A stretch of DNA of 64,000 nucleotides, taken from an uncultured Actinomycetota bacterium. Lineage in GTDB: Bacteria > Actinomycetota > Geothermincolia > Geothermincolales > RBG-13-55-18. Each line of letters opens with the position of its first letter. Within the stretch, counting starts at the first letter, position 1. Shown here in pieces: positions 20,171 through 36,057 of the stretch. The notes under the pieces were generated by a model. The model saw nothing but the letters and a program-made list of their open reading frames with translations. It had not been told where the DNA came from and ran no database searches. Made by a program: the position numbers and the translations under genes. The stretch covers positions 100,503-164,502 of the forward strand of contig CAZEAU010000001.1 in the NCBI GenBank assembly GCA_964510515.1, in the 5' to 3' direction.

Positions 20171-20213
20171 GAGCCCGGGTGTCGAGCTCCGCGGCCGGCC
20201 GGGGAGGAGCGCC

Positions 20214-20696
20214 GTGAGGGCGCTGCTGCAGCGCGTATCACGCTGCGCGGTGCGGGTGGGCGGGCGCGAGGTCTCGCGCATCGGGCCGGGCCTGCTGGTG
20301 CTCCTGGGGATAAGCGCGGCCGACGGCGAGGACGACGTCGACCTCATCGTGGGCAAGGTCATACACCTGCGCATCTTCGACGATGCCGCGGGAAAGCTGA
20401 ACCTCTCCCTCCGCGACGTCGGCGGCGAGCTGATGCTGGTCTCGCAGTTCACCCTCTACGGCGACGCGCGCCGGGGCCGGCGGCCCAGCTATACGAGGGC
20501 TGCCCCGCCGCAGAGGGCGCAGGAACTGTACCTGCTGGCATGCGAGAGGTTCGCCGCCGCCGGGTTCCCGCCGCAGAGAGGCGTTTTTCAGGCCCACATG
20601 GAGGTGGAGCTGGTCAACGATGGCCCGGTGAGCATACTGCTGGAAAGCGAGCGAGGCGCCTCCGGCCGGACCTCTCCCCCGGCGCGCGCCACCTGA
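20214..20696 (+). CDS. dtd: D-aminoacyl-tRNA deacylase Dtd
   Basis: MRALLQRVSRCAVRVGG...VSQFTLYGDARRGRRPSY with the SQFTL motif; usual relA-dtd neighbourhood. Confidence 0.9.
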   Translation: MRALLQRVSRCAVRVGGREVSRIGPGLLVLLGISAADGEDDVDLIVGKVIHLRIFDDAAGKLNLSLRDVGGELMLVSQFTLYGDARRGRRPSYTRAAPPQRAQELYLLACERFAAAGFPPQRGVFQAHMEVELVNDGPVSILLESERGASGRTSPPARAT

Positions 20697-20770
20697 CACA
20701 GATGCCCTTGCGCTAGGCGTTTTATGGCCAAGCACTCGATATTCGAGACCCGACCCCCTATACTTTACGC

Positions 20771-21421
20771 ATGTTCCTGGACGTTTTGAGCATCGGCATG
20801 CTGGCCACCAACTGCTATATCGTGGCCGCGAAGAGGCATGCGCCGGCGCTGGTGATAGATCCCGCCGGGGAGGTCAAGAGGATAATCTCCCGCCTGCGCG
20901 AGGCCGAGCTGGAGTGCACGGGCATACTCTGCACGCATGGCCACGCGGATCATGTGGCGGGCGCGGGCGCGCTCGGCGAGGCCCTTGATGTGCCCGTGCA
21001 TATACACGAGGCGGATGCCGCGGGCCTTGCCGGCCCTCGCGTCAAGCTCATGGGTCTGGCGGGAGGGGTGCTGGCCACGCGCGCCCGGCAGTTGCGCTAC
21101 CTGGAGGACGGGGAGCTCATAGAGGCCGGAGAGCTGAGCCTCGGGGCCCTGCACACCCCGGGGCACACCCCCGGCGGCATGAGCTTCTACACGCCGGGAT
21201 ATCTGTTCTGCGGAGACCTCATCTTCCAGGGCTCCATAGGCAGGACGGACCTGCGGGGCGGATCGCTGCAGGAGTTGCTGCGGGCGGTGAGGGAGAAGAT
21301 ATGGGATCTGCCCGGCGAGACCCGCGTCCTCCCCGGGCATGGCCCGCAGACCACCCTGGGGCGGGAGAGAAGAGAGAACCCCTTCCTGCGGGGGCTGGGC
21401 CCGCCCCGCCGCGGCGATTGA
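20771..21421 (+). CDS. MBL-fold metallo-hydrolase (glyoxalase II-like)
   Basis: CTHGHADHVAGAGAL motif (THxHxDH), 216 aa; TATACT -10-like hexamer ends about 6 nt before the ATG. Confidence 0.75.
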   Translation: MFLDVLSIGMLATNCYIVAAKRHAPALVIDPAGEVKRIISRLREAELECTGILCTHGHADHVAGAGALGEALDVPVHIHEADAAGLAGPRVKLMGLAGGVLATRARQLRYLEDGELIEAGELSLGALHTPGHTPGGMSFYTPGYLFCGDLIFQGSIGRTDLRGGSLQELLRAVREKIWDLPGETRVLPGHGPQTTLGRERRENPFLRGLGPPRRGD

Positions 21422-21525
21422 GGGGCGCGGGGAGGTCCGCGGGGTCGGCGTCGGCGCCGCGGGCGGGACGCGTGCGGGAGCAGGAGGCGGGCGAACAGGA
21501 CGAGGGAACGGAGCTGAGACGGCCA

Positions 21526-22785
21526 TTGGAGATCAAAGCCCCCCGGGGCACGGTGGATATACTGCCTCCACACAGCGATGACTGGCGGAGGGCGGCGGAG
21601 AGGGGCACGGCCCTTTTCCGCTCCTACGGCTACCGCGAGATAGTGCTCCCCATCATGGAGCACACGGAGCTCTTCGCGCGCGGCATCGGGCAGGGCACGG
21701 ACATCGTGCAGAAGGAGATGTTCACCTTCGAGGACAAGGGGGGGCGCAGCCTCACCCTGCGCCCCGAGGCCACGGCGGGGGTGGTGCGCGCCTTCAATCA
21801 GCATCGCCTCGCCGCCGCCGGGCTGCCGGTGAAGCTCTATTATCAGGGCCCCATGTTCCGGCACGAACGCCCGCAGGCGGGCCGCTATCGCCAGTTCAAC
21901 CAGCTGGGGGTGGAGCTCATCGGCTCCCCCTTTCCCGCCGCGGACGCGGAGGTGATCATGCTCTGCGCGCATTTCCTGAACGAGCTGGGCATAGCCGCAG
22001 ACCTGGTGGTGAACAGCGTGGGCGATGCCGAATGCCGCCCCGCCTATGTGGCGCAGCTGAGGGAATACCTTGAGGAGAGGCGGGAGAGCCTCTGCGCGGA
22101 TTGCCGCCGCCGGGCGGTGGAGAACCCGCTGCGGGTGCTGGATTGCAAGGCGGAGGGCTGCGCCGGGGTCATCGCCGCGGCGCCGCTCATCGAGGATTTC
22201 CTCTGCGCGCCCTGCCGCGAGCATCAGCGGGAGGTCGAGGGTCTGCTCGCCGCGGCAGCGCTGTCCTTCCGCCGCGAGGCCCGCCTGGTGCGGGGGCTGG
22301 ATTACTATACCAGAACGGTCTTCGAGTTCCAGGACCCGCGGCTGGGGGGACAGAATACCCTCGCCGCGGGGGGCAGGTATGACAACCTGGTGCAGGAACT
22401 GGGGGGCAAGCCCACGCCGGCGACCGGCTTCTCCATCGGCATGGAGAGGGTCATGCTCGCCGGGCCGCGTCTCGGCGAGCGCGAGGCGGGATGGGTATTC
22501 GTCGTGGCCATCGGGGACGAGGCGAGGGGCAAAGCGTTCGCCGCGGCGCAGGAATTAAGGGACGCGGGCATCGCCGCCGACCTCGATCATCTGCGCCGCA
22601 GCCCCAAGGCACAGATGCGCGAGGCGGACCGCGGCGGATGTTCCTTGAGCCTGATCATCGGCGGGGACGAGCTGGCGGGCGGGTACTACACCCTGCGCGA
22701 TATGCGCGCCGCGACGCAGGAGCGCGTGGAGGGGCCGCAACTGGTGGAGACGGTCAAGCGGCGCCTGGCGGAGCCCGGCGCCTGA
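21526..22785 (+). CDS. hisS: histidine--tRNA ligase HisS (TTG start at 21526 chosen over the upstream in-frame extension that overlaps the previous gene)
   Basis: IKAPRGTVDILPP N-terminal motif, class II motifs 1-3, C-terminal anticodon-binding domain. Confidence 0.88.
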   Translation: MEIKAPRGTVDILPPHSDDWRRAAERGTALFRSYGYREIVLPIMEHTELFARGIGQGTDIVQKEMFTFEDKGGRSLTLRPEATAGVVRAFNQHRLAAAGLPVKLYYQGPMFRHERPQAGRYRQFNQLGVELIGSPFPAADAEVIMLCAHFLNELGIAADLVVNSVGDAECRPAYVAQLREYLEERRESLCADCRRRAVENPLRVLDCKAEGCAGVIAAAPLIEDFLCAPCREHQREVEGLLAAAALSFRREARLVRGLDYYTRTVFEFQDPRLGGQNTLAAGGRYDNLVQELGGKPTPATGFSIGMERVMLAGPRLGEREAGWVFVVAIGDEARGKAFAAAQELRDAGIAADLDHLRRSPKAQMREADRGGCSLSLIIGGDELAGGYYTLRDMRAATQERVEGPQLVETVKRRLAEPGA

Positions 22786-22798
22786 GGATGGGGAGAAG

Positions 22799-24568
22799 AT
22801 GAAAGAGAGAGGATGGAGCAAGCGCACGCGGATGTGCGGTTCCCTGCGCGCCGCGGACGTGGGGAGCGAGGTAACCCTGAACGGATGGGTGCAGAGGCGG
22901 CGCGATCACGGCGGGGTCATCTTCATCGACCTGCGCGACGTGAGCGGCCTGGTGCAGGTGGTCTTCAACCCCGGGCTCGACCCCGGGGCTCACGCCGCCG
23001 CGGGGGAGGTGCGCGGGGAATACGTCCTCTCCTGCCGCGGCATGGTCAGGGCCCGCCCCGAGGAGTCGGTCAACCGCGTCCTTCCCACCGGGGAGGTCGA
23101 GGTCATGGCGGAGGAGATAACGGTGATCAGCGCGTCGCTCACCCCGCCCTTCGAGATCGAGGAGGGATCGGATGCGGGGGAGGGCCTTCGCCTGCGCTAC
23201 CGTTACCTCGACATCCGCCGCCCCGACCTGCGCGACGCCCTCATCCTGCGCAGCCGCGTCAGCGCCGAGGTGCGCGGCTTCCTGGCCTCACGCGGCTTCG
23301 TGGAGGTCGAGACGCCCATCCTCACCAAGAGCACCCCGGAGGGCGCGCGCGATTTCGTGGTGCCATCGCGCCTGCAGCCGGGCAGCTTCTATGCCCTGCC
23401 GCAGTCGCCTCAGCTTTTCAAGCAGTTGCTCATGGTGGCCGGCCTCGACCGCTATTATCAGATAGCGCGCTGCTTCCGCGATGAGGACATGCGCGCCGAC
23501 CGCCAGCTCGAGTTCACCCAGATCGACCTGGAGATGTCCTTCGTGGACTCGGGCGACGTCATCTCGCTCATGGACGAGATGTTCGCCCACGTCTTCGCGC
23601 GTACGCTGGGCGTGGAAGTGGCGCTCCCCATACCCCGCATGACCTGGCATCAGGCCATGGAGCGCTACGGCAGCGACCGCCCGGACACGCGCTTCGGCAT
23701 GGAGCTGCAGGACCTTTCCGGCATCTTTTCGCACAGCGATTTCAAGGTCTTCCGCGCCGCCCTGGAGGGAGGCGGCGGGGTGCGGGGCTTCAGGGTGGAC
23801 GGGCTCGTCTCCCCGCCGCGGCGCGAGCTCGACGGCCTGGTGGAGGAGGCGCAGCGGCTGGGCGCCTCCGGGCTGGTGTGGCTGGTGCGCGAGGGCGAGG
23901 CGCTGAAGTCGCCGGTGGCGAAGTTCCTCTCCCCGCAGGAGACGAGCGCGCTCATCGCCGGGACCGGCCTGGCGGAGGGCGAGGTGGCGGTGCTGGCTGC
24001 AGGCGGCGCGGAGACGAGCGCCGTGCTCTGCGGCATCAGGGACTATTGCGTGCGCCGTTTCTCCCCGCCGCCGCGGGAGAGGTTCTCCTTCGCCTGGATA
24101 ACGGACTTTCCGCTCTTCGACTGGGACGAGGAAGAGAAGAGGTATAAGAGCAACCACCATCCCTTCACCGCGCCTTCGCGGAGATGCCTCGACCACCTCG
24201 AGGAGCGCCCCCTGGAGGTCGTCTCCGACTCCTACGACATGGTGCTCAACGGCGTCGAGTTGGGGGGAGGGAGCATAAGGATACACCGCGCCGATCTGCA
24301 GGAACGTATATTCCGCCTCCTGGGGCTGGGGCGGGAGGAGGTGGAGGACAAGTTCGGTTTTCTGCTGGAGGCGCTGCGCTACGGCCCGCCCCCTCACGGC
24401 GGCATCGCCTACGGCCTGGACCGCATGGTCATGCTCATGGCGGGAAGGGAATCCATAAGGGACGTTATCGCCTTTCCCAAGACGCAATCGGGCGCGGACA
24501 TCATGAGCGGCGCGCCCGGCAGCGTGTATGCGCAGCAGCTCAGGGAGCTGCGCCTGCGCCCGCTCTAG
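22799..24568 (+). CDS. aspS: aspartate--tRNA ligase AspS
   Basis: OB anticodon-binding N-domain, class IIb catalytic core (FYALPQSPQLFKQLLM...QIARCFRDEDMRADRQLEFTQIDLEMSF), GAD insertion; 589 aa. Confidence 0.95.
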   Translation: MKERGWSKRTRMCGSLRAADVGSEVTLNGWVQRRRDHGGVIFIDLRDVSGLVQVVFNPGLDPGAHAAAGEVRGEYVLSCRGMVRARPEESVNRVLPTGEVEVMAEEITVISASLTPPFEIEEGSDAGEGLRLRYRYLDIRRPDLRDALILRSRVSAEVRGFLASRGFVEVETPILTKSTPEGARDFVVPSRLQPGSFYALPQSPQLFKQLLMVAGLDRYYQIARCFRDEDMRADRQLEFTQIDLEMSFVDSGDVISLMDEMFAHVFARTLGVEVALPIPRMTWHQAMERYGSDRPDTRFGMELQDLSGIFSHSDFKVFRAALEGGGGVRGFRVDGLVSPPRRELDGLVEEAQRLGASGLVWLVREGEALKSPVAKFLSPQETSALIAGTGLAEGEVAVLAAGGAETSAVLCGIRDYCVRRFSPPPRERFSFAWITDFPLFDWDEEEKRYKSNHHPFTAPSRRCLDHLEERPLEVVSDSYDMVLNGVELGGGSIRIHRADLQERIFRLLGLGREEVEDKFGFLLEALRYGPPPHGGIAYGLDRMVMLMAGRESIRDVIAFPKTQSGADIMSGAPGSVYAQQLRELRLRPL

Positions 24569-24664
24569 GCCGCCGCGCGGAGGGAGCGCGCCCGCCGCCC
24601 CGTGGCGGTATAATGTCTGTGGGCCGCCGGTGAGAGGGTGCGGGCACGGCGAGAGCGGGAGACG

Positions 24665-25567
24665 ATGGAGATAACCGTAGCCAGATACGTGGGCTTCTGT
24701 CCCGGGGTCAAGCGGGCCATCAGGATGGCCGAGGAGACCCTGCAGGATTTCCAGGGCCGGGTGTACACGCTGGGGCCCATCATCCACAACCCCGGGGTGG
24801 TCGGGGACCTGAGGAGCCGGGGGCTGGAGATACTCCCCGACGACGTGGGCGCGCTGCAGGGCTGTGACCTGGCCGCCAGCAAGGTGGTCATCAGGTCGCA
24901 CGGCATCTCCCCCTCGCTCACCGAGTCCCTGCTGGAGAAGGGCGCCGACCTGGTGGATGCCACCTGTCCCACGGTGAAGAAGGCCCAGCGGGCGGCCATG
25001 CGCCTGGTGGGGGAGGGCTACAAGCTCTTCATCATCGGGAACCTCGACCATCCGGAGGTGAAGGCCATCCTCGGCCACATCAACGGCGAGGCGGTGGTGA
25101 TCAAGGAGACCAGTGAGCTCAAGGAGTGGTGGGAGAACAACTTCCGCGAGGTGCGCAAGGTTGGGCTCATCGCGCAGACCACGGTGGACCTGCTCATGTT
25201 CCGCAGCCTGGTCGACGGGCTCATCAACGAGGTCCCGGAGCTGATCCGCGAGGTGCTGGAGCTCAAGATCATCAATACCCTGTGCCGCAATACCCTTGCG
25301 CGCCAGGCGGAGGCCCTGCAGCTGGCGCTGGCATCAGACCTGGTGGTGGTGGTGGGGGGGAGGAACAGCTCCAACACCGAGTTCCTGCGTAAGATCTGCG
25401 AGGCTGCCGGGACAGCCACGACGAAGATCGAGAACGCAGGCGAGCTCGACATCTCCCTCCTGGCCGGAGTGGAGAAGTTGGCCATCCTGGGGGGGGCCTC
25501 CACCCCGGGGTCCGTCGTGGGCGCCGTCAAGGACAGGATAGAGAGCTGGATTTCCCGCGCTCCATAA
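24665..25567 (+). CDS. ispH: 4-hydroxy-3-methylbut-2-enyl diphosphate reductase IspH
   Basis: GFCPGVKRAI, TCPTVKK and LCRNT cysteine motifs of IspH; alternative in-frame start at 24638. Confidence 0.9.
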   Translation: MEITVARYVGFCPGVKRAIRMAEETLQDFQGRVYTLGPIIHNPGVVGDLRSRGLEILPDDVGALQGCDLAASKVVIRSHGISPSLTESLLEKGADLVDATCPTVKKAQRAAMRLVGEGYKLFIIGNLDHPEVKAILGHINGEAVVIKETSELKEWWENNFREVRKVGLIAQTTVDLLMFRSLVDGLINEVPELIREVLELKIINTLCRNTLARQAEALQLALASDLVVVVGGRNSSNTEFLRKICEAAGTATTKIENAGELDISLLAGVEKLAILGGASTPGSVVGAVKDRIESWISRAP

Positions 25568-25592: not shown

Positions 25593-25622
25593 TTTACATC
25601 CTCCCCCCCGATTAGATATAAT
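25593..25622 (+). promoter_or_regulatory. candidate sigma70 promoter for acs (TTTACA-18 nt-TATAAT)
   Basis: AT-rich island in a GC-rich gap about 100 nt upstream of the acs ATG (25722); hexamers read directly. Confidence 0.35.
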
Positions 25623-25721
25623 CCTTCGCTGGATGGCACAAAGCGCACAGCACCTTGACCGGGAGGGGGGCCGGCGAAGTCACCCTTTTTCACCAAAGAC
25701 GCTTATGATAGGAGGCGGCAG

Positions 25722-27707
25722 ATGACGCAGCATGGTGCCGCGGGCGCCGACGGGAGGGAAATCATCTATCCACCCGAGGAACTGAGCAAGAACGCCTACA
25801 TCAAGAGCATGGACCAGTACCGGGAGATGCATCGGCGCTCTCTCGAGGACATAGACGGCTTCTGGTCGGAGATGGCCGAGACCTTGGACTGGCAGAAGAA
25901 ATGGGACGGCGTTTACAGCTGGGACGAGAAGGGGTGCCGGTGCACCTGGTTTGAAGGCGGCAGGCTCAACGTCTCCTTCAACTGCCTGGACCGCCACGTC
26001 AACGCCGGCAGGGCGGACCGCACGGCCATCATCTGGGAGCCCGACGAGCCCGGGGAGAGCAGGACTTATACCTACGGGGAGCTGCTTGACCAGGTATGCA
26101 GGTTCGCCAACGCGCTCAAGAAGCACGGGGTCAGGAAAGGCGACCGCGTGTGCATCTACCTGCCCATGATACCGGAGCTCCCGATCGCCATGCTGGCCTG
26201 CACGCGCATCGGCGCCGTGCACAGCGTGGTCTTCGGCGGCTTCTTATCCGATGCCCTGCGCGACCGCATCCTGGACAGCGACTGCGGAACCCTGGTCTGC
26301 GCCGATTCCGGTTATCGCAGCGGCAAGACGGTGCCCTCGAAAAAATACGCGGACGTCTCGCTGGAGGAATGCCCGGGCGTAACCGACGTGTTCGTGGTCA
26401 GGCACAGCGGGGCGGAAGTGAACATGGTCGAGGGGCGGGATTACTGGTGGCACGAGGAGCTGGCGGCGCCGGACGTCGCGGGAGGGTGTCCCGCGGAGGA
26501 GATGGACGCCGAGGACCCGCTCTTCATCCTCTACACCAGCGGCAGCACCGGCAAGCCCAAGGGCGTGCTGCACAGCACGGCGGGATACCTGCTGCACACC
26601 TCCCTCTCCCTGAAATGGATCTTCGATATCCATGACGACGACATCTGGTGGTGTACAGCCGACATCGGCTGGGTTACCGGGCACAGCTACATCGTCTATG
26701 CCCCGCTGGCCAACTGCTTCACCCAGGTCATGTTCGAGGGCGTGCCCACCTATCCGCAGCCCGATCGTTTCTGGAAGGTGGTGGAGAAGCACAAGGTGAC
26801 CGTCTTCTACACCGCGCCCACGGTTATCCGCTCCCTCATACGGGAGGGCGAGGAATGGACGAAGACCGCCGACCTCTCCACCCTGCGCGTCCTGGGGACG
26901 GTGGGCGAGCCCATAAACCCCGAGGTGTGGTTGTGGTACTACGATCATATCGGAGGAGGCCGCTGCCCCGTCCTGGATACCTGGTGGCAGACGGAGACCG
27001 GCGCCATCCTCATCAGCCCCCTGGCGGGGGCCACGCCCATGAAGCCCGGCTCGGCGAGCTTCCCCTTCCTCGGGGTCGACCCCGTCATCCTCAATCAGGA
27101 CGGCAAGGAGGAAGCCGCCGGCGACAGCGGCTTTCTGTGCATCCGCAGGCCCTGGCCGGGCATGATGCGTACCGTTTACGGCAACCACGAGCTCTTCGTC
27201 AACACCTACTGGTCCATGTTCCCGGGCTATTACGTGACCGGGGACGGCTGCCGCAGGGACGCCGGGGGGTTCTATTGGCTGCAGGGCCGCATCGACGACG
27301 TCATCAACGTCTCCGGGCACCGCATCGGCACCGCCGAGGTGGAGAGCGCGCTGGTGAGCCACGATTACGTCTCCGAGGCGGCGGTGGTGGGCATGCCCCA
27401 CGACATCAAGGGACAGGGCATCTATGCCTATGTCACCCTCAAGGCGGAGTTCGAGGACCTGGACCAGGATGAACTGCGCAAGATGCTGGTGGCGCACGCT
27501 CGCAAGGAGATCGGACCCATAGCGACACCGGACGTCATCCACTTCACCCCCGCACTGCCCAAGACGCGCAGCGGTAAGATCGTGCGCCGCATCCTGCGCA
27601 AGATAGCGGAGGGGACCCCGGATACCCTTGGCGACACCAGCACCCTCGCCGACCCCTCCGTGGTCTTCTCCCTCATCGAGGGAGACCGGGCACTGAGGGG
27701 TAAATAA
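25722..27707 (+). CDS. acs: acetyl-CoA synthetase (AMP-forming) Acs
   Basis: YTSGSTGKPKGV AMP-binding motif, full-length Acs similarity, conserved C-terminal acetylatable lysine region (PKTRSGKIVRR). Confidence 0.95.
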   Translation: MTQHGAAGADGREIIYPPEELSKNAYIKSMDQYREMHRRSLEDIDGFWSEMAETLDWQKKWDGVYSWDEKGCRCTWFEGGRLNVSFNCLDRHVNAGRADRTAIIWEPDEPGESRTYTYGELLDQVCRFANALKKHGVRKGDRVCIYLPMIPELPIAMLACTRIGAVHSVVFGGFLSDALRDRILDSDCGTLVCADSGYRSGKTVPSKKYADVSLEECPGVTDVFVVRHSGAEVNMVEGRDYWWHEELAAPDVAGGCPAEEMDAEDPLFILYTSGSTGKPKGVLHSTAGYLLHTSLSLKWIFDIHDDDIWWCTADIGWVTGHSYIVYAPLANCFTQVMFEGVPTYPQPDRFWKVVEKHKVTVFYTAPTVIRSLIREGEEWTKTADLSTLRVLGTVGEPINPEVWLWYYDHIGGGRCPVLDTWWQTETGAILISPLAGATPMKPGSASFPFLGVDPVILNQDGKEEAAGDSGFLCIRRPWPGMMRTVYGNHELFVNTYWSMFPGYYVTGDGCRRDAGGFYWLQGRIDDVINVSGHRIGTAEVESALVSHDYVSEAAVVGMPHDIKGQGIYAYVTLKAEFEDLDQDELRKMLVAHARKEIGPIATPDVIHFTPALPKTRSGKIVRRILRKIAEGTPDTLGDTSTLADPSVVFSLIEGDRALRGK

Positions 27708-27778
27708 AAGCGCACGCCGCGTCGGTGGCGAAAGAGTCATGGCAGGACAGGGAGAAAAAAGGAGAGTGAGAGTAAAAG

Positions 27779-28384
27779 ATGGCTGATGACGTCAAGTTGG
27801 CTAATCCGGCGGTCCTGGGGCTTACCTGCTTCGGCATGACCACCGTCTTGTTGAACCTGCATAACGCGGGCCTCTTCAAGATGGACATGAGCATCCTGGC
27901 GATGGGGCTCTTTCTGGGGGGCGCCGCCCAGATAATCGCGGGCGCCATGGAGTTCAAGAAGGGCAACAGCTTCGGGCTGGTGGCCTTCAGCGCCTACGGG
28001 GCATTCTGGCTCACCCTGGTCTTCATCCTCATAGGGGGCCCGTATCTGATGGCGGAAGGAGCGCCGCTCGCATCCGGCCTGGAGGCCAGCTATCGGGGCA
28101 TGGGCTGGTACCTGTTCATCTGGGGGGTTTTCAGCTGCTTCATGTTCATCGGCACCTTCAAGGCCAACCGCGTCCTGCAGGCCATATTCGCCACGCTCAT
28201 CGTGCTCTTCTTCCTCCTGGCCATATTCTACGGCTGGGGGGCGACCTCCGCTGGGCTCCTCAAGGTCGCCGGCATCATCGGCATCGTGTGCGGCTCTCTT
28301 GCCATTTATCTGGCCATGGCCGAGCTGCTGAACGAGATGTATGGGCGGACCATATTCCCCATCGGGCCCATGAGCGGGAAGTAG
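27779..28384 (+). CDS. satP: GPR1/FUN34/YaaH-family acetate/succinate-proton symporter SatP
   Basis: NPAVLGLTCFGMTT N-terminal signature and 6 TM helices. Confidence 0.85.
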   Translation: MADDVKLANPAVLGLTCFGMTTVLLNLHNAGLFKMDMSILAMGLFLGGAAQIIAGAMEFKKGNSFGLVAFSAYGAFWLTLVFILIGGPYLMAEGAPLASGLEASYRGMGWYLFIWGVFSCFMFIGTFKANRVLQAIFATLIVLFFLLAIFYGWGATSAGLLKVAGIIGIVCGSLAIYLAMAELLNEMYGRTIFPIGPMSGK

Positions 28385-28730
28385 CCGCGCAAGGGGCAGA
28401 AGGGGTCGCGGCCGCGGCGGGGAGGCAAACGCGGCGATGAGAGGCCGAGGCGGCCGGGCGAGAGATCGTCCCGGCCGCTTTTTCTCGCCCGCGAACTGGA
28501 GCGGCGGGGGCCAGGCATCCCTTCCCGCATGGTCGCCGGCTCGGGGAGAGCGGGGGCGGGGAGATGAGGGCCGCGGGCGGCGGGAAGGCCGCGCGCCGCC
28601 CGCTTTGAAAGCGGCGGGGATTAGGGGCATACTGAAAGGGGTTAGCGAGCGGGCGGCGCGGGGACCTCGCCCGCACAAGCTTCCTTCGGCGCGAGAGGAT
28701 CGGAAGATGAGAAGGAGGGAGGGAGCAGGC

Positions 28731-30620
28731 ATGGAGGGAGCCCGGACTATAGGAGACGATCTCAAGCAGCGCTATCCGGAGAAATTCGCGGCGGAGAAAA
28801 GGGTCTTCGCGAGGATTCGCCGCGGGGCGCATCTCTTTGTCGGCACCGGCTGCGGCGAGCCCCAGCAGCTGGTCGCCTCCCTCGCGGATTACGCCGCGGC
28901 CCACCCCAAGGCGGTTTTCGACGCCGAGGTCTTCCATGTGTGGAGCCTGGGGGTCGCCCCCTACGCCGACGAGAAACTGCAGCAGAACTTCCGCCACAAC
29001 TCCTTCTTCATCGGGGAGACCACCAGGGCGGCCGTGAACGAGGGCCTCGCGGATTACACCCCCATTTTTCTCTCCGAGGTGCCGGACCTTTTCCGCCGGG
29101 AGTTCATCCCCATCGACGTGGCGCTGGTGCAGACCTCGCCTCCGGATCGCAATGGCTACATGAGCCTCGGGGTCAGCGTGGACATCACCAAGGCGGCGGT
29201 GGAGAAAGCGTCGCTCGTCATCTGCCAGGTGAATTCTTTCATGCCGCGCGTCCACGGCGACACCTTCGTGCACGCGGACGACGTGGATTACATCCTCTGT
29301 TGCAATGAGCCGCTCCTGGAGTACAGCCCCACCATCTCCGACGAACTCGCGGAGCGCATCGGCAAGCACGTCGCCCACCTCATCGAGGACGGCGACACCA
29401 TACAGGTCGGGTACGGGAGCATACCCAACGCCATCCTCGCCAACCTGGAGGGCAGGAAGCATTTGGGCGTGCATACCGAGCTCCTCAGCGACGGCATCGT
29501 CAACCTCATCAAGAAGGGCGTGATCGACAACACCCTGAAGACCCTGGACCGCGGAAAGACGGTGGCTACCTTCTGCATGGGGTCCAAGGAGACCTACGAT
29601 TTCCTGGACGACAACCCGTGCATCGAGTTCAGGACCATAGACTACACCAACAACCCCCTCAACATCGCCCGGCAGAGGGGGATGACGGCCATCAACAGCG
29701 CGCTGGAGATCGACCTCACGGGGCAGGCCTCGGCGGAGTCTTTGGGCAAGATCTTCTACAGCGGCATCGGCGGGCAGGCGGACTTCATGCGCGGCGCGGT
29801 CCTCGCTCCCGGGGGGATGAGCATACTGGCGCTCCCCTCCACCGCCGAGCAGGGCAAGGTCTCCAGGATAATCCCCATGCTCAGGGAGGGGGCGGGCGTA
29901 ACCCTGAGCCGCGGCGACGCCCATTACGTGGTCACCGAGTTCGGCATCGCCTACCTCCACGGCAAGAACGTGCGCGAGAGGGCCATGGAGCTCATCGCCA
30001 TCGCGCACCCCGATTTCCGTCCCTGGCTCATCGACGAGGCCAAGCGCAACAATATCATCTACCGCGACCAGGCCTTCATACCCGGCAAGGAGGGGGAATA
30101 CCCGGCGGAGCTGGAGACCTACCGCACCACCAAGAGGGAGATCGAGATCATGCTCAGGCCGGTGAGGATAAGCGACGAGCCCCTGCTCAAGGACTTCTTC
30201 TACTCCCTTTCCGACAAGAGCCTCTACCGCCGTTTCGTCTCCACGCGCCAGGACATGCCCCACGACCGCCTGCAGGAGTTCGTGGTCATCGACTACACCA
30301 AGGAGATGGTCATCCTGGCCATGCTCGTGGGGGAGGAGGGGGAGGGACTGGCGGGGGTGGGCCAGTACAGCATCAATGCGGGCACCCACCATGCCGAGGT
30401 GGCCTTCGTGGTCAGGGACGAGTATCAGAACCTGGGCATCGGCACCTCCCTGCTGGCATACCTGGCGCAGCTGGCGAGGAGGCAGGGCCTGCACGGTTTC
30501 ACCGCGGAGGTGCTCTCCGAGAACGTGCCCATGATGCGCATGTTCGAGCAGGCGGGGTTCGATATCGAGAGGTCGGTCTCCTCGGGGGTGTGCGAGCTGG
30601 TCATGGGCTTCAGGGATTAG
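28731..30620 (+). CDS. fusion protein: acetyl-CoA hydrolase/CoA-transferase family domain (N) plus Pat-like GNAT acetyltransferase domain (C)
   Basis: C-terminal AcetylCoA_hyd_C-type region (IGGQADFMRGAVLAPGGMSILALPSTAEQGKVSRIIP...VVTEFGIAYLHGKNVRERAMELIAIAHPDFRPWL); last about 150 aa resemble the Salmonella Pat GNAT domain; ATG at 28731 after GAAGGAGGG. Confidence 0.75.
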   Translation: MEGARTIGDDLKQRYPEKFAAEKRVFARIRRGAHLFVGTGCGEPQQLVASLADYAAAHPKAVFDAEVFHVWSLGVAPYADEKLQQNFRHNSFFIGETTRAAVNEGLADYTPIFLSEVPDLFRREFIPIDVALVQTSPPDRNGYMSLGVSVDITKAAVEKASLVICQVNSFMPRVHGDTFVHADDVDYILCCNEPLLEYSPTISDELAERIGKHVAHLIEDGDTIQVGYGSIPNAILANLEGRKHLGVHTELLSDGIVNLIKKGVIDNTLKTLDRGKTVATFCMGSKETYDFLDDNPCIEFRTIDYTNNPLNIARQRGMTAINSALEIDLTGQASAESLGKIFYSGIGGQADFMRGAVLAPGGMSILALPSTAEQGKVSRIIPMLREGAGVTLSRGDAHYVVTEFGIAYLHGKNVRERAMELIAIAHPDFRPWLIDEAKRNNIIYRDQAFIPGKEGEYPAELETYRTTKREIEIMLRPVRISDEPLLKDFFYSLSDKSLYRRFVSTRQDMPHDRLQEFVVIDYTKEMVILAMLVGEEGEGLAGVGQYSINAGTHHAEVAFVVRDEYQNLGIGTSLLAYLAQLARRQGLHGFTAEVLSENVPMMRMFEQAGFDIERSVSSGVCELVMGFRD

Positions 30621-30949
30621 CCCCGAGGCCGGGTTCGGGAGCGGGGAAGCGGAGATGACGCAGCTCAAGGGCGGACCTGGCGCGGGTTGTGTTAAGATAG
30701 ACGCGAAGAGAGGAAATACGGGCCCGACCTTGTGCGTTTAACGCCGCAACGTATCGTTGAGCCAACACTTCGATTAAGGGAGCCGTTTTCCGGAGGTGGA
30801 CGCAATGCCCCGAACCCGGGTTGGGGACTGCGGAGACCCGAGGTAGGTGCCCACCTGCGAGGACGCAGGTTCAAGATAGCGGCGATGACGGCAAGGTGGA
30901 GCCCATTTTCCTGGCCTCAAGGGCCCCCTGAAGAGACGCCCTTGCGGGC

Positions 30950-32299
30950 GTGAGGTCCGCGAGGGGGAGAGGCGGTCGCTTGGATCTCTTCGAATCCGCC
31001 AGGGAGGATATCAGGCGCAGGGAGTCGCCCCTCGCCGTGCGCATGCGCCCGCGAACCCTGCAGGAGTTCGTGGGGCAGGACGAGGTGGTGGGCGAGGGCA
31101 CCTATCTGCGCCGCGCCATCGAGGAGGACCGCCTGCAGACGGCCATCTTCTGGGGGCCGCCGGGCTCCGGCAAGACCACGCTGGCGGGCATCATCGCCGG
31201 GGTCTCCGCGGCACACTTCCAGCAGATATCCGCGGTGATCAGCGGGGTCGCCGAGGTGCGCGGGATCATCCGCGAGGCCGGCGACCGCCGGGTCATGCAG
31301 GGCAGGCGCACCATCCTCTTCATCGACGAGATACACCGTTTCAACAAGGCGCAGCAGGACGCTCTCCTGCCAGCGGTGGAGGAGGGCACGATCGTGCTCG
31401 TCGGCGCGACCACCGAGAACCCCTATTTCGAGGTCAACTCGGCCCTGGTCTCGCGCGCCAAGATATTCCGCCTCTCCCCGCTCAGCGGGGAGGAGGTGCG
31501 CACGGTGGTGCGCAGGGCGCTGGCCGACCGCGAACGCGGCCTGGCGGGGCTGGCCCTGGCGGTGGAGGACGAGGCCATAGACCACGTCGTGAGCATGGCG
31601 GGAGGAGATGCCCGGGTGGCGCTCAACATACTGGAGGCCGCGGCGCTGCTGGCGGGGATGCAGGCGGGCGGGGGGCGCATCGACCTCGGCATCGCCGAGG
31701 AGGCGGCCCAGCGCAAGGCTCTCCTCTACGACAAGGCGGGAGACGCGCATTACGACACCGTGTCCGCCTTCATCAAGTCCCTGCGGGGCTCGGACCCCCA
31801 CGCCGGCGTGTACTGGCTGGCGCGCATGCTCCAGGCGGGGGAGGACCCGCGTTTCATCGCCAGGCGCATGGTCATCTTCGCGTCCGAGGACATCGGCCTG
31901 GCCGACAGCCGGGCCCTGCTGGTGGCCGATGCCGCGGCGAGGGCGGTGGAGTTCGTGGGCTTGCCGGAATGCCGCCTCAACCTGGCGCAGGCCGTGCTCT
32001 ACATGGCCCTGGCGCCGAAGAGCAACTCCGCCACGCGGGCCATCGCGGCGGCGCAGGCCGCGCTCGAGGACGGGGCGGCACCCACCGTCCCCGCCCACTT
32101 GAGAGATGCGAGCTATGCGGGCGCCGGGGAGCTCGGGCACGGCAGGGGATACCGCTATCCCCACGATTTCGCGGGCGGCTACGTGCCGCAGCAGTACCTG
32201 CCCGACGGCCTGGAGGGCCGGCAGCTATATGAGCCCGGAGACGCGGGGGAGGAGGAGGGCATGGCCGCGGAGTGGAGGAAACGCCGCGGGCGGATTTGA
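30950..32299 (+). CDS. rarA: replication-associated recombination protein A (RarA/MgsA AAA+ ATPase)
   Basis: LAVRMRPRTLQEFVGQDEVVGEGTYLRRAIEEDRLQTAIFWGPPGSGKTTLA Walker A, Walker [14 protein letters not shown]-terminal MgsA domains. Confidence 0.93.
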   Translation: MRSARGRGGRLDLFESAREDIRRRESPLAVRMRPRTLQEFVGQDEVVGEGTYLRRAIEEDRLQTAIFWGPPGSGKTTLAGIIAGVSAAHFQQISAVISGVAEVRGIIREAGDRRVMQGRRTILFIDEIHRFNKAQQDALLPAVEEGTIVLVGATTENPYFEVNSALVSRAKIFRLSPLSGEEVRTVVRRALADRERGLAGLALAVEDEAIDHVVSMAGGDARVALNILEAAALLAGMQAGGGRIDLGIAEEAAQRKALLYDKAGDAHYDTVSAFIKSLRGSDPHAGVYWLARMLQAGEDPRFIARRMVIFASEDIGLADSRALLVADAAARAVEFVGLPECRLNLAQAVLYMALAPKSNSATRAIAAAQAALEDGAAPTVPAHLRDASYAGAGELGHGRGYRYPHDFAGGYVPQQYLPDGLEGRQLYEPGDAGEEEGMAAEWRKRRGRI

Positions 32300-32364
32300 C
32301 ACCCCGGAAGAGCTGGTGCTATTCTCGAAAACGTTGTTATACCTGCATATACGGGAGATGAAGC

Positions 32365-32754
32365 ATGTATTCGGACAAGGTCATCGAACACTTCCAGAAC
32401 CCGCGCAACGTGGGTGAGATCGCGGACCACGACGGCAAGGGCGAAGCGGGGAGCGAGACCTGCGGGGACATGATGGAGGTATACATCAAGGTCGCCGACG
32501 GGCGCATAGAGGACGTTAAGTACAAGACCTTCGGATGCGGGGCGGCGGTGGCCTCGGGGAGCATGGGCACCGAGATGGCGAAGGGCAAGACCATCGAGGA
32601 GGCCTCGCGCATCACGGACGAGCAGGTGGCGGAGGCCCTGGGCGGCCTGCCGGAGGAAAAACTGCACTGTTCGAACCTGGCCGCCGAGGGCATCAGGGCG
32701 GCCATAGCGGATTACCTCTCCAGAAACGGCGGCGGAGAGGCGGACTTGGGTTAG
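32365..32754 (+). CDS. iscU: Fe-S cluster assembly scaffold IscU/NifU-like
   Basis: HFQNPRNVGEI...GSETCGDMMEV...FGCGAAVAS...LHCSNLA cysteine triad pattern of U-type scaffolds. Confidence 0.88.
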   Translation: MYSDKVIEHFQNPRNVGEIADHDGKGEAGSETCGDMMEVYIKVADGRIEDVKYKTFGCGAAVASGSMGTEMAKGKTIEEASRITDEQVAEALGGLPEEKLHCSNLAAEGIRAAIADYLSRNGGGEADLG

Positions 32755-32763
32755 GCGGGGAAC

Positions 32764-33150
32764 ATGGCAGGCGTGGCGGCGCTCATCTGCGCCATTTCTT
32801 TTGCGCTCTTGATGCTGGCGCTGCTCGTGGTGGTGCTGAAACTGGCGCGCACCATGGCCATAACCAACAGGCTCCTCAACGATATCCGCAAGGAAACCCT
32901 CCCGCTCATGGGCAGGATACAGACGACCATCGATCACATCAATAACGAGATGGGCTACGTCGACGGCGTGCTCAAGTCGCTGGAAAACGTCGCCGCGCGG
33001 GTCAATTCCACCGCCCAGGCGGCGCAGGCATTCGTCACCTCACCCCTGGCGAGGGTGCTCGCAATGGGGCTGGGGGCGTGGAGGGCGCTGGAGCTGTCCG
33101 CGCCGTGGAAGGGGAGCGCAGGGCGCGAAGGGGGAGACGGGAGGGAATAG
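32764..33150 (+). CDS. DUF948-family membrane protein
   Basis: N-terminal TM followed by coiled-coil region typical of DUF948. Confidence 0.55.
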   Translation: MAGVAALICAISFALLMLALLVVVLKLARTMAITNRLLNDIRKETLPLMGRIQTTIDHINNEMGYVDGVLKSLENVAARVNSTAQAAQAFVTSPLARVLAMGLGAWRALELSAPWKGSAGREGGDGRE

Positions 33151-33405
33151 GCCCCGCGCGCCGTCACCTCCCCGCCCGCACGGGGAACGCAAGCAGCGGG
33201 CACCCGGGCATGGGCAGGCCGCCGCCGCGGCCCGCCGCGACCACCAGGGGCCGAGACCGCGTCCCGCAGCGCCCGCCATGACGTTGGCGATGGACTTTGC
33301 GGGGCATAACCTGTTCAATGATGAGGGCGCACGGGCTCGCCGGCAGCGGGAAAGGCGGCCGCCCGGCGAGATGAAGCGCTCGCCGCGGGGCGCGGGAGGA
33401 GAGGG

Positions 33406-36057
33406 ATGAAGAGCGACGAGATAAGAGCCAGGTTCCTCGAATATTTTCAGGGCAGGGGACACCGCCTGGTCAAGAGCTCTTCGCTCATACCCGACGACCC
33501 CACCCTTTTGCTCACCAACGCCGGCATGGTGCAGTTCAAGCCCTATTTCCTGGGCAGCGCCAGGCCGGATTTCAGCCGTGCCGTCACCTGCCAGAAGTGC
33601 GTGCGCACCACGGACGTGGAGAGGGTCGGTCACACCGCCCGCCACCTCACCTTCTTCGAGATGCTCGGCAATTTCAGCTTCGGGGACTATTACAAGAGCG
33701 AGGCCATCTCCTGGGGGTGGGACTTCCTGACCGCGGACATGGGGCTGGAGCCCACCCGCATGTACTGTTCCGTGTTCGAGGAGGACGACGAGGCTTACGG
33801 CATCTGGCGGGACGTGGTCGGCGTTCCCGAGGAGCGCCTGGTGCGGCTGGGGGCCGAGGACAACTTCTGGGACATGGGCGCCACGGGCCCCTGCGGGCCG
33901 TGCTCGGAGATACTCTATGACCTGGGCGACGCATTCGGTTGCGGCGGGCCCGAGTGCGGGCCCGGCTGCGAGTGCGACCGCTATCTGGAGCTGTGGAATC
34001 TCGTCTTCATGCAGTACAACCGCGACGAGCGGGGAGAGCTGACCCCCCTGCCCGCCAAGAGCATTGATACCGGCCTCGGGCTGGAGAGGCTGGCTTCGGT
34101 GCTGCAGGGGGCGGCCAGCAACTTCGAGACCGACGCCCTGGCGGCGGTGCTGCATACCGCCGCGGAGCTGTGTGGGGTGGGCTACGGCGAGGAAGAGGAC
34201 AGCGATATCTCATTGAAGATAGTGGCCGACCATTCCCGGGCGGTGACCTTCCTGGTCGGTGACGGCGTGCTGCCCTCGAACGAGGACCGCGGCTACATCC
34301 TGCGCAGGATCATACGCCGCGCCGTGCGCCACGGCCGCCGCCTGGGCGCGGGCGAGGTATTTTTGCCCCGCATGGTGGCCACGGTTGTCGAGACCATGGG
34401 CGCCGCCTACCCCGACCTCGTGCACAACGCGGCTTTTATCACCTCCATCGTGCGCAGCGAGGAGGAGCGATTCACCCAGACGCTGCGCGGCGGCCTCGCC
34501 TATTTCGAGGAAGCCGTGACCGCCGCCCGCGCGCAGGGGGAGAGCACGCTGCCCGGAGACGTGGTTTTCCACCTGCACGACACGCTGGGGTTCCCCCTCG
34601 ACCTCACGCGCGAACTGGCGAATGAGCGCGGCGTGGGGCTCGACGAGATGCGCTTCGAGGTGCTCATGCGGCAGCAGCGGGAGCGGGCCAGGGCGGCGAG
34701 GGTCGAGGAGGGATATGCGCCGCAGGCGCAGGAGGTTTACCTGCAGATACTGGATAATTTCGGCCAGAGCAGCTTCATAGGTTACGAGGAGCTGAGCGCA
34801 AGGGCCACCCTGGTGGCGGTGGTCAAAGACGGCCGTGCCGTGGCGGCGGCCACGGCCGGCGACGAGGCGGAGATATTCCTCGACCATACCCCGTTCTATG
34901 GGGAGATGGGGGGGCAGGTGGGGGACACGGGCAGGCTGCTCTCCGAGGAGGGCGAGGCCGAGGTCCTGGAGACATCGCGGCCCGCGAGCGGCCTCATCTC
35001 CCACCGCTGCCGCATCCTGCGGGGAGAGCTTTCGGCAGGAGCAGAGGTTGAAGCCGTGGTGGACGGGGAGAGGCGCAACGCCATCCGCCGCAACCATACC
35101 GCCACCCATATCATCCACTGGGCTCTCAGGCAGGTGCTGGGCGAACACGCAAAACAGGCGGGGTCCATGGTCGATGCCAGACATTTGCGCTTCGACTTCA
35201 CCCATTTCCAGCCCCTGTCGGGGGAGGAGCTGACGCGGATCGAAGAGCTCGCCAACCGCAAGGTCCTGGAGGACCTGCCGGTGAGGGCGTACGTTACCAC
35301 CTACGAGTACGCCGCCAGCATCGACGCCGTGGCCCTCTTCGGGGAGAAGTACGAGGACTACGTGCGGGTGGTGGAGGTGGACGAGATAAGCCGCGAGCTC
35401 TGCGGGGGCACCCATGTGGGCCGCACGGGTGAGATAGGCCTGCTGGTCATCGCGGGGGAGAGCGGTATCGGGGCAAATATGCGCAGGATAGAGGCCCTGA
35501 CCGGCATGGAGGCCTACGGCTGTTTCCGCACTCACCGCGAGATGGTCGAGCGCGTGGCCGCGTCGCTGAAGGTGGAGACGGCGGAGCTGCCGCAGAGGGT
35601 CGACCGGCTGCTGCAGCGGGTGAAGGAGCTGGAATCCGAGAACAGAAAGCGGGAGAGGGAGGGCATCGTCTCGCTGGCGGGAGAGGGGATAGCCTGGGAG
35701 GAGAAGCGGTCAGCGGGAGGACAGGCAGTGGTCAGCGCCAGCGTGGAGGGACTGGATGCGCAATCCCTGCGCGAACTGGCGGAGCGCACCCTTAAGGGCC
35801 GGAAGGCGGCCGTCGTGGCCATCGTCAGCGTGCTGGGAGAAAAGGCCAACCTGGTGGTGGCCCTCTCCGGGGAAGCGGCGAGGGCGGGCCTGGACGCCGT
35901 GGGGCTGGCCAAAAGAGCGGGGCGCCTGCTGGGAGGAGGGGGAGGCGGCAGGGCGGAGATGGCGGTCGGGGGAGGCTCCGACACCTCGCGCACCGCGGAC
36001 GCCCTGGCGCAGGTGGTGCAGGAGGCGGGATCGCGCCTGGAAAGAGGACATGCGTAG
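33406..36057 (+). CDS. alaS: alanine--tRNA ligase AlaS
   Basis: 883 aa; FLEYFQGRGHRLVKSSSLIP... class II core, editing domain zinc motif (HTATHIIHWALR; CGGTHV), C-terminal DHHA1 region. Confidence 0.96.
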   Translation: MKSDEIRARFLEYFQGRGHRLVKSSSLIPDDPTLLLTNAGMVQFKPYFLGSARPDFSRAVTCQKCVRTTDVERVGHTARHLTFFEMLGNFSFGDYYKSEAISWGWDFLTADMGLEPTRMYCSVFEEDDEAYGIWRDVVGVPEERLVRLGAEDNFWDMGATGPCGPCSEILYDLGDAFGCGGPECGPGCECDRYLELWNLVFMQYNRDERGELTPLPAKSIDTGLGLERLASVLQGAASNFETDALAAVLHTAAELCGVGYGEEEDSDISLKIVADHSRAVTFLVGDGVLPSNEDRGYILRRIIRRAVRHGRRLGAGEVFLPRMVATVVETMGAAYPDLVHNAAFITSIVRSEEERFTQTLRGGLAYFEEAVTAARAQGESTLPGDVVFHLHDTLGFPLDLTRELANERGVGLDEMRFEVLMRQQRERARAARVEEGYAPQAQEVYLQILDNFGQSSFIGYEELSARATLVAVVKDGRAVAAATAGDEAEIFLDHTPFYGEMGGQVGDTGRLLSEEGEAEVLETSRPASGLISHRCRILRGELSAGAEVEAVVDGERRNAIRRNHTATHIIHWALRQVLGEHAKQAGSMVDARHLRFDFTHFQPLSGEELTRIEELANRKVLEDLPVRAYVTTYEYAASIDAVALFGEKYEDYVRVVEVDEISRELCGGTHVGRTGEIGLLVIAGESGIGANMRRIEALTGMEAYGCFRTHREMVERVAASLKVETAELPQRVDRLLQRVKELESENRKREREGIVSLAGEGIAWEEKRSAGGQAVVSASVEGLDAQSLRELAERTLKGRKAAVVAIVSVLGEKANLVVALSGEAARAGLDAVGLAKRAGRLLGGGGGGRAEMAVGGGSDTSRTADALAQVVQEAGSRLERGHA

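Follow-up and report, generated by a model that had tools for sequence, protein, structure and literature searches.

A CoA-transferase/Pat-type GNAT fusion protein encoded beside acs and satP in an uncultured Actinomycetota bacterium, a candidate regulator of acetyl-CoA synthetase

Introduction

What does a protein that joins a coenzyme A (CoA) transferase to a Pat-type GNAT acetyltransferase do beside the gene for the acetyl-CoA synthetase Acs? This question is raised by a 64,000-nucleotide stretch of DNA from an uncultured Actinomycetota bacterium of the order Geothermincolales (GenBank assembly GCA_964510515.1, contig CAZEAU010000001.1, positions 100,503 to 164,502 of the forward strand), hereafter called the window, in which acs, the acetate uptake transporter gene satP and a gene for such a fusion protein follow one another. 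Metabolic control via lysine acetylation in prokaryotes has its textbook example in Acs, which Pat-type enzymes acetylate; still open in this story is the way in which the state of metabolism is sensed by the acetyltransferase itself. A preliminary description, made from the sequence of the window, had presented the three genes as a coherent acetate module and the fusion as a protein that couples the interconversion of acetate and acetyl-CoA directly to the acetylation control of Acs. Here, the domain composition, the active-site residues, the family distribution and the genomic context of the fusion were analysed. The 629-aa fusion is proposed to be a bifunctional, Pat-like lysine acetyltransferase (KAT) that regulates Acs and uses a working CoA-transferase as its regulatory domain, a composite mechanism predicted from sequence that we judge equally likely to be right or wrong.

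Gene start and domain composition of the fusion protein

The three genes are located on the plus strand in the order acs, satP and fusion gene, with the coordinates that had been given before (Table 1); the start coordinate of the preliminary description, 25593, is the start of a promoter-like site 5′ of acs. The longest open reading frame (ORF) for the fusion starts at 28437 and comprises 727 aa. The closest-homologue set, which consisted of the 120 best of at least 8000 candidates from a word-indexed search, contained nearly exclusively proteins of 620-640 aa with 629 aa as the commonest length, and the ATG at 28731 is preceded by a strong Shine-Dalgarno sequence, GGAGGGAGGGAG. Due to the homologue lengths and this Shine-Dalgarno sequence, the 629-aa reading (28731-30620) was taken to be the right one. 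The 727-aa ORF (28437-30620) was ruled out since the homologues have about 629 aa and its 98 additional residues are an Arg/Gly-rich read-through of the GC-rich spacer. The positions of Pfam and NCBIfam domains in the fusion are numbered on the 727-aa ORF.

A scan with hidden Markov models, which the preliminary description had proposed, placed AcetylCoA_hydro (170 bits, cutoff 24), AcetylCoA_hyd_C (213 bits, cutoff 23.7) and Acetyltransf_1 (50.8 bits, cutoff 20.7) in the protein, all of them above cutoff, and the N-terminal half is therefore assigned to the CoA-transferases as had been claimed. The partner domain of the GNAT half also differs from that of classical Pat in the way described: CoA_binding_2, Succ_CoA_lig and ATP-grasp_5, the domains of a nucleoside diphosphate (NDP)-forming acyl-CoA synthetase, were not found in the fusion ORF by the Pfam scan. 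Since these domains are missing and AcetylCoA_hydro and AcetylCoA_hyd_C are present instead, the fusion is not a Pat of type I or type II. AlphaFold2 modelling with 84 close homologues resulted in a predicted local distance difference test (pLDDT) value of 70 and a predicted template modelling score of 0.62, with pLDDT values below 50 in a disordered linker at residues 445-462.

The CoA-transferase half

Structures in the PDB aligned with the CoA-transferase half end to end. The best matches were the 4-hydroxybutyrate CoA-transferases 9vag (E = 1.3e-124), 3eh7 (7.7e-118) and 3gk7 (AbfT; 9e-108), and RipA of Yersinia (3qli) matched with E = 1.6e-87. The glutamate of the HTE motif, E250, aligned to chain position 264 of 3qli and to position 238 of 3gk7. 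Provided that the 3qli chain carries a 15-residue tag, its position 264 is Glu249 of RipA, which has been described as catalytic and as conserved among family I CoA-transferases (PMC3180442). E250 is invariant in the 84 close homologues, and so are G345, G347, G348, Q349, D351 and F352 of the active-site motif GIGGQADF. These alignments place the N-terminal half among the family I CoA-transferases, in the 4-hydroxybutyrate/butyryl-CoA:acetate type. The equivalog model for butyryl-CoA:acetate CoA-transferase, TIGR03948, scored 275 bits and did not reach its cutoff of 674.8, and the assignment therefore stops at the family and does not extend to the substrate. Acetate and acetyl-CoA are one substrate pair of the characterised 4-hydroxybutyrate and butyryl-CoA CoA-transferases.

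The GNAT half

The GNAT half had been described as Pat-like, and the structural matches bear this out. The PDB ranking was 4nxy, 4u5y, 9it0, 9isq, 4ava, 4oll/4orf/4onu and 3f8k, followed by generic GNATs with E-values of 1e-6 or weaker. The half aligned over its full length to the GNAT domain of Streptomyces lividans PatA (SlPatA; 4nxy, E = 1.9e-19), to residues 710-878 of PatZ (9it0, 4e-16) and to residues 155-293 of Mycobacterium tuberculosis Pat (MtPat; 4ava, 4e-13), and M. smegmatis Pat was also among the Pat GNATs aligned over the whole half. The alignments include the Pat-specific leader YPxxLE...RP..DEP...LY.RF, which is present as YPAELE...RPV..DEP...LYRRF. The best NCBIfam GNAT model was that of mycobacterial Pat, NF058543, with 83 bits for residues 566-712 of the 727-aa ORF. 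The alignment was confined to the GNAT part and the full-length cutoff of 460 bits was not reached, for which reason the fusion is not a type III Pat either.

E556 aligns with position 809 of PatZ and position 235 of MtPat, glutamates that we take to be the catalytic residues of these enzymes, and is E in 51 and D in 33 of the 84 close homologues. The acetyl-CoA pyrophosphate-binding loop Q/RxxGxG/A, whose absence would have spoken against a functional GNAT domain, is present as QNLGIG, in which Q566, G569, I570 and G571 are invariant in close homologues. By these alignments the GNAT half is of the Pat lineage, and from their residues both halves of the fusion look catalytically competent.

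Many GNATs act on small molecules, and the database names of the homologues are generic ('GNAT family N-acetyltransferase' at NCBI, 'acyl-CoA hydrolase/RimJ/RimL family protein N-acetyltransferase' at JGI), which would fit a purely metabolic bifunctional enzyme whose GNAT half N-acetylates a small molecule with acetyl-CoA from the transferase half and which regulates no protein. This is very unlikely in view of the top structural relatives, all of them protein KATs, of the aligned Pat-specific N-terminal leader, and of the relatives fused to Hist_deacetyl and the Pat or histone deacetylase (HDAC) genes at some loci described below.

Acs, SatP and the proposed mechanism

The protein encoded by acs reached the equivalog scores of the NCBIfam models for acetate--CoA ligase, NF001208 (992 bits, cutoff 657) and TIGR02188 (963 bits, cutoff 725), and contains the Pfam domains ACAS_N, AMP-binding and AMP-binding_C. 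The motif PKTRSGKIVRR, which the preliminary description had reported, was located in its C-terminal region (Table 1). The lysine of this motif, K619, is by motif the equivalent of K609 in Acs of Escherichia coli and Salmonella enterica (PMC12184503). SatP was assigned by Gpr1_Fun34_YaaH (118 bits) and by the NCBIfam model AceTr_1, NF038013 (220 bits, cutoff 50); against the E. coli SatP equivalog PRK10659 it scored 218 bits, under the cutoff of 297.

In the proposed mechanism, the GNAT half would acetylate Acs, and possibly other AMP-forming ligases, with acetyl-CoA, in Acs at K619, and would thus turn acetate activation off. At no expense of ATP, the CoA-transferase half would exchange CoA between acetate/acetyl-CoA and a second short-chain acyl-CoA. 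As a domain predicted to bind acyl-CoA, CoA and acetate, it may tune the GNAT half, its occupancy or turnover setting either the acetyltransferase activity or the docking of the substrate. This step is drawn by analogy with PatZ, where acetyl-CoA binds to the regulatory domain and this domain brings about cooperative activation and contributes to the pocket for Acs (PMC12184503). The ATP-costly Acs would in this way be shut down when acetyl-CoA is plentiful or is made or consumed via ATP-neutral or ATP-yielding routes, and in operons with an ADP-forming synthetase a futile acetate cycle would be avoided.

Distribution and variants of the fusion family

The distribution of the fusion across genomes, which the preliminary description had recommended to examine, turned out to be that of a large family present in many phyla and not special to this genome. 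Among the 120 best matches, which are 70-87% identical to the window protein, all but one contain both domains; the exception has 555 aa and no GNAT match on record. In species-representative genomes at least 585 stretches were confirmed as related, a number that may include stand-alone transferases. The best 80 of these, with flanks of up to ±8 kb, were used as the locus set (L001-L080), the taxonomic labels of loci from metagenome-assembled genomes (MAGs) being taken as given in the database records. Both halves are covered in all 80 loci, with identities of 66-82%. Together, the fusion orthologues (66-87% identity) span more than 20 phyla of Bacteria and Archaea. The bacterial carriers among the 80 loci belong to Actinomycetota, Bipolaricaulota, Thermodesulfobacteriota/Syntrophales, Spirochaetota, Planctomycetota, Nitrospirota, Chloroflexota, Cyanobacteria, Thermotogae and others, and about 10 loci are from archaeal MAGs (Thermoplasmatota, Theionarchaea, Halobacteria, Woesearchaeota and Iainarchaeum). 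Archaeal and very distant bacterial orthologues are still 66-74% identical to the window protein, which is unusually high; such identity over such distances suggests horizontal transfer, very strong constraint, or both.

A wider view of the family was obtained from an exhaustive HMMER search, in which 64 of the top 150 representatives of 50%-identity clusters were full-length fusions, down to 32% identity. In these 64 divergent representatives the catalytic glutamate of the transferase half is retained in 62% of the sequences and GGQxDF is often degraded; the replacements of the glutamate, found in about 38% (for example P0133, P0136, P0132 and P0211 of the alignment), are D, Q, C, I, A, G, S, F and others. 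In the GNAT half, G569 is retained in 94% and N598 in 98% of the representatives, and from this difference the GNAT activity is regarded as the constant function of the family. Apparently, as far as the alignment tells, the transferase half has repeatedly turned into a non-catalytic partner in some lineages and has not done so in the clade of the window protein.

These replacements, together with the GNAT motifs kept beside them, also speak for another reading, in which the CoA-transferase half of the window protein is a ligand sensor or scaffold that works without turnover, like the synthetase-like domain of Pat, so that the fusion would be a KAT with a single activity and a new type of sensor. 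We consider it unlikely: all catalytic elements are invariant in the 84 sequences of the window's clade, which come from many phyla, the half is close to solved, active enzymes (E = 1e-124), and the mean column conservation in the 64 representatives is higher in the transferase half (0.53) than in the GNAT half (0.42).

Other domain combinations and copy numbers were also found. In the triple fusions P0175 (1013 aa) and P0179 (955 aa), the CoA-transferase and the GNAT are followed by a C-terminal Hist_deacetyl domain, by which the writer and the eraser of lysine acetylation are placed in a single polypeptide. In P0126 (967 aa) and P0130 (960 aa) the CoA-transferase and the GNAT are preceded by about 340 additional N-terminal residues that contain 4Fe-4S dicluster motifs, and in P0238 (703 aa) the GNAT is replaced and the CoA-transferase joined to an enoyl-CoA hydratase. 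Tandem copies of the fusion are present in L067 (8001-11849) and L074 (8001-11754), the second copies being 53% and 67% identical to the window protein, respectively.

Genomic context of the orthologues

Genes for acs were found within 8 kb of the fusion gene in 12 of the 80 loci, and satP was nearby in 6. The order acs-satP-fusion is common to the closest relatives of the window, L001-L005 (Actinomycetota). In another actinomycetotal locus (L029) the fusion gene is directly preceded by acs; L063, from a Syntrophaceae MAG, has acs-satP on the opposite strand, convergent with the fusion gene. Linkage to acs was also observed in deltaproteobacterial MAGs (L055, L058 and L069), a haloarchaeal MAG (L042) and two cultured cyanobacteria. 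The locus of Microseira wollei NIES-4236 (L018, 5781-13046) comprises a type I Pat (915 aa), the fusion and acs, and that of Lyngbya sp. CCY1209 (L054, 4199-11052) comprises acs, a major facilitator superfamily transporter, the fusion and, on the other strand, an HDAC-family deacetylase; these two cyanobacteria are possible experimental systems. Linkage to acs thus arose in several independent arrangements in unrelated lineages. Its frequency is far above the roughly 1% at which a gene present in one or two copies would by chance be met within 16 kb of an arbitrarily chosen one, a figure that is an estimate and not a computed statistic.

The commonest partners of the fusion are other genes. 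An ADP-forming acyl-CoA synthetase is encoded in 38 of the 80 loci, in about 35 of them directly 3′ of the fusion gene with a gap of 2-20 nt. This protein of about 700-705 aa contains CoA_binding_2, Succ_CoA_lig, Ligase_CoA_2 and ATP-grasp_5, and its best PDB match is the ADP-forming 4-hydroxybutyrate-CoA ligase 8wzu (E = 2.5e-142, versus 7e-72 for PatZ). The catalytic-histidine motif SHTGS was dropped as a marker of real downstream synthetases, as the type I Pat of Microseira keeps it too, and the PDB ranking was used instead. The synthetase gene is followed in 32 of the 80 loci by a gene for an AAA_26+DRTGG protein of about 344 aa that resembles the N-terminal regulatory region of Pta. The resulting three-gene operon of fusion, ADP-forming synthetase and DRTGG protein is present in bacterial and archaeal MAGs among L006-L080 (e.g. 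L024, 8001-13100, L060 and L008). Either acs or the ADP-forming synthetase was nearby in 49 of the 80 loci and in 29 of the 43 loci with at least 3 kb on both sides, and neither was present in the other 14 of these well-flanked loci. In the 64-kb window, genes for the ADP-forming synthetase and the DRTGG protein were searched and not found.

The preliminary description had named Acs as the partner of the fusion, which agrees with the recurrent acs linkage and disagrees with the greater frequency of the ADP-forming synthetase and the DRTGG protein. The latter genes raise the alternative that the GNAT half is a protein acetyltransferase with a target other than Acs, be it the ADP-forming synthetase, the DRTGG protein, the transferase half of the fusion itself or a wide range of proteins, the adjacency of acs being secondary. 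PatZ has many substrates (PMC12184503), which also speaks for this alternative. In the window, however, the nearest enzyme gene is acs and neither of the two alternative partner genes was found, acs linkage recurs in independent arrangements, and for most of the bacteria studied the named substrate of Pat-type GNATs is Acs (PMC12184503). A non-Acs target is thus rather unlikely for the window protein, and even in that case the operon link to the ADP-forming synthetase and the DRTGG protein would mark an unstudied conserved module.

Transcriptional organization and surroundings of the locus

The spacer between satP and the fusion gene has a length of 346 nt. Just 3′ of satP, folding showed a hairpin of the intrinsic-terminator type, where a terminator pattern scan had given no site, and hairpins with other stem sequences and U-rich tails occur at the equivalent position in L001-L005. 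A promoter-like element follows 5′ of the fusion gene, and its region with the -10-like box (GGGCATACT / ACATACT) is conserved in L001-L003. The fold of the whole spacer was not clearly better than that of shuffled sequences (z = -1.8). A riboswitch or other known RNA in the spacer was ruled out, Rfam giving only a chance-level match to mir-207 (E = 0.53). Because of the conserved terminator hairpin and the predicted promoter-like element, the fusion gene is probably transcribed apart from acs-satP, and acs-satP and the fusion gene probably constitute two transcription units. The acetate module of the preliminary description therefore stands as a group of three acetate-related neighbouring genes and probably not as one unit of transcription. 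With its own probable promoter, the fusion as a regulator would be expressed independently of acs-satP.

The predicted terminator and promoter, the position of the genes in a block set among hisS, aspS, ispH, rarA, nifU and alaS, and the well-flanked orthologous loci with neither acs nor an ADP-forming synthetase are all points in favour of a functionally unconnected neighbourhood, in which acs, satP and the fusion gene would lie side by side in a housekeeping region by descent only. Set against them are the common involvement of all three genes with acetate or acetyl-CoA, the same trio in another orientation in the Syntrophaceae MAG, and the acs linkage in cyanobacteria, a haloarchaeal MAG and Deltaproteobacteria at a frequency estimated far above background; mere adjacency is highly improbable.

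Table 1. Positions of genes, protein features and predicted transcription signals of the acs-satP-fusion locus in the window
Feature	Position	Strand	Remarks
Promoter-like site 5′ of acs, TTTACA-18-TATAAT	25593-25622	+	11/12 consensus matches; consensus match only
acs	25722-27707	+	AMP-forming acetyl-CoA synthetase, 661 aa
Acs A10 motif PKTRSGKIVRR	27558-27590	+	Residues 613-623
Acs K619	27576-27578	+	Lysine in PX4GK motif; acetylated by Pat-type enzymes in other Acs proteins
satP/yaaH-family acetate uptake transporter gene	27779-28384	+	201 aa
Intrinsic-terminator-like GC hairpin + TTTTT, just 3′ of satP	28447-28486	+	-28.4 kcal/mol, z = -4.95
Promoter-like site 5′ of the fusion gene, TTGAAA-17-CATACT	28605-28633	+	9/12 consensus matches
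CoA-transferase/Pat-type GNAT fusion gene	28731-30620	+	629 aa; from domains and homologue lengths
CoA-transferase half, AbfT/Cat2/RipA type	28764-30065	+	About residues 12-445; PDB alignment of residues 10-445 end to end
E250, predicted catalytic Glu (HTE)	29478-29480	+	Alignment with RipA and AbfT
GIGGQADF, CoA-transferase active-site motif	29763-29786	+	Residues 345-352
Pat-type GNAT half	30093-30617	+	Residues 455-629; PDB alignment including Pat-specific leader
E556, predicted catalytic acidic residue	30396-30398	+	Aligns with PatZ 809 (9it0) and MtPat 235 (4ava)
QNLGIG, acetyl-CoA pyrophosphate-binding loop Q/RxxGxG/A	30426-30443	+	Residues 566-571

The acetate genes are embedded in a housekeeping block (17981-25567 and 30950-36057 of the window) with relA/spoT, dtd, a gene for a metallo-beta-lactamase-fold protein, hisS, aspS and ispH upstream and rarA/mgsA, nifU-like, DUF948 and alaS genes downstream; the five closest loci from Actinomycetota MAGs likewise have hisS upstream of their acetate genes. 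Directly 3′ of the fusion gene and 5′ of rarA/mgsA, a 6S/SsrS RNA gene was identified at 30719-30906 on the plus strand, which matched Rfam RF00013 over the full model length with 61.7 bits (gathering threshold 46.4, E = 8.7e-11). Across the whole window (1-64000), nearly all ORFs with a coding-like G+C content at third codon positions (>0.8) are on the plus strand, and the cumulative GC skew climbs almost monotonically, which together with the ORF orientation fits a long co-oriented leading-strand stretch. In the last 4 kb of the window, a region of type IV pilus/pseudopilin genes, the G+C content falls from about 0.66 to 0.57.

Discussion

The reading of the fusion as a Pat-like regulator of Acs with a working CoA-transferase is supported by the catalytic and cofactor residues of both halves, the Pat lineage of the GNAT, K619 of Acs and the recurrent neighbourhood of acetate/acetyl-CoA enzymes. 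Several observations weigh against it. Between satP and the fusion gene lies a terminator-like hairpin. The ADP-forming synthetase is found beside orthologues more often than acs, so that Acs may not be the main or sole target. No deacetylase was found in the 64-kb window, where tblastn with HDAC domains was negative and SIR2 and Hist_deacetyl were absent among the scanned ORFs, which leaves the eraser half of the acetylation cycle unaccounted for locally; a deacetylase could lie elsewhere in the genome. The Microseira locus carries a classical Pat in addition to the fusion, and the presence of both side by side argues against simple redundancy. Contacts between the domains cannot be judged from the AlphaFold model, whose confidence is too low. 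Finally, in the full-text literature, whose coverage omitted most subscription journals, no paper describing or experimentally studying such proteins and no biochemical data on any member of the family were found; the sequences are already in databases under generic names. The coupling of acetate/acetyl-CoA chemistry to the acetylation control of Acs that the preliminary description had proposed thus has the support of association only, through the recurrent acs linkage, the Pat and HDAC neighbours and the Hist_deacetyl fusions.

If the proposed regulation is true, the joining of a Pat-like GNAT to an acetate/acyl-CoA enzyme would be a new solution to the sensing of metabolism, conserved over distant phyla including archaea, and the catalogue of regulated KATs would extend past the cyclic AMP (cAMP), amino-acid, NADP and synthetase-like types. 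The same regulation could account for the avoidance of futile acetate cycling in anaerobes that use ADP-forming synthetases or CoA-transferases. A wider proposal goes beyond the window: the fusions may form an unrecognised, ancient and widespread class of KATs outside the published types, in which the Pat-type GNAT has a working CoA-transferase for its regulatory partner and the turnover of this transferase, following the acyl-CoA/acetate ratio, directly gates acetylation. Such a class would be a control element of 'acetate switch' gene sets, with either Acs or the ADP-forming synthetase and the Pta-N-terminal-like DRTGG protein, in more than 20 bacterial phyla and the Archaea, and, from the gene order of fusion followed by synthetase, could be a relative or precursor of type II Pat. 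This proposal is tentative and in our estimate somewhat likelier to be wrong than right.

Comparison with known systems

The characterised CoA-transferases AbfT (3gk7), RipA (3qli), 9vag and 3eh7 share with the fusion an alignment from end to end over its first 445 residues or so, the catalytic glutamate and the motif GxGGQxDF. In contrast to the fusion, the characterised enzymes of the AbfT/RipA type are stand-alone proteins of 430-450 aa without a GNAT domain.

On the regulatory side, the acsA-acuABC locus of Bacillus subtilis is comparable in that acs has genes for a KAT, AcuA, and for a deacetylase of the HDAC type, AcuC, beside it, and the same logic is found in the Lyngbya locus. AcuA, a small GNAT that stands alone, belongs to another subgroup, and the window, unlike B. 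subtilis, contains no deacetylase gene and no AcuB.

In a recent survey of the structures and phylogeny of bacterial GNAT KATs, five types are distinguished, with a synthetase-like domain followed by a GNAT (type I), the reverse order (type II), regulation by cAMP, ACT or NADP+ domains (type III), a GNAT only (type IV) and a tandem form (type V) (PMC12184503). The architecture of a CoA-transferase followed by a GNAT is absent from the published types I-V. Archaeal GNAT KATs have been described as typically single-domain.

Type III Pat (M. tuberculosis and M. smegmatis with a cAMP domain; ACT- and NADP-regulated forms) resembles the fusion in joining a Pat-type GNAT to a domain that binds a metabolite, with the difference that this domain is a small allosteric sensor, whereas the partner in the fusion is an enzyme of about 440 aa. 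Type II Pat (SlPatA; 4nxy, 4u5y) provides the best PDB match of the GNAT half, and its order of GNAT and then synthetase is mirrored by the fusion gene and the following ADP-forming synthetase gene in about 35 loci. It differs in being one polypeptide without a CoA-transferase, while the synthetase accompanying the fusion is a separate protein, closest to real ADP-forming ligases and absent from the window. Type I Pat/PatZ (S. enterica Pat and E. coli PatZ; 9it0, 9isq) has in common with the fusion the lineage of the C-terminal GNAT, with the YPxxLE leader, the Q/RxxGxG/A loop and an acidic residue where PatZ has Glu809, as well as a large N-terminal domain that binds CoA thioesters, as is predicted for the fusion; both are placed within the paradigm of Acs regulation. 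The large domain of Pat, however, has the fold of an NDP-forming acyl-CoA synthetase (CoA_binding, Succ_CoA_lig and ATP-grasp), whereas that of the fusion is a seemingly active family I CoA-transferase.

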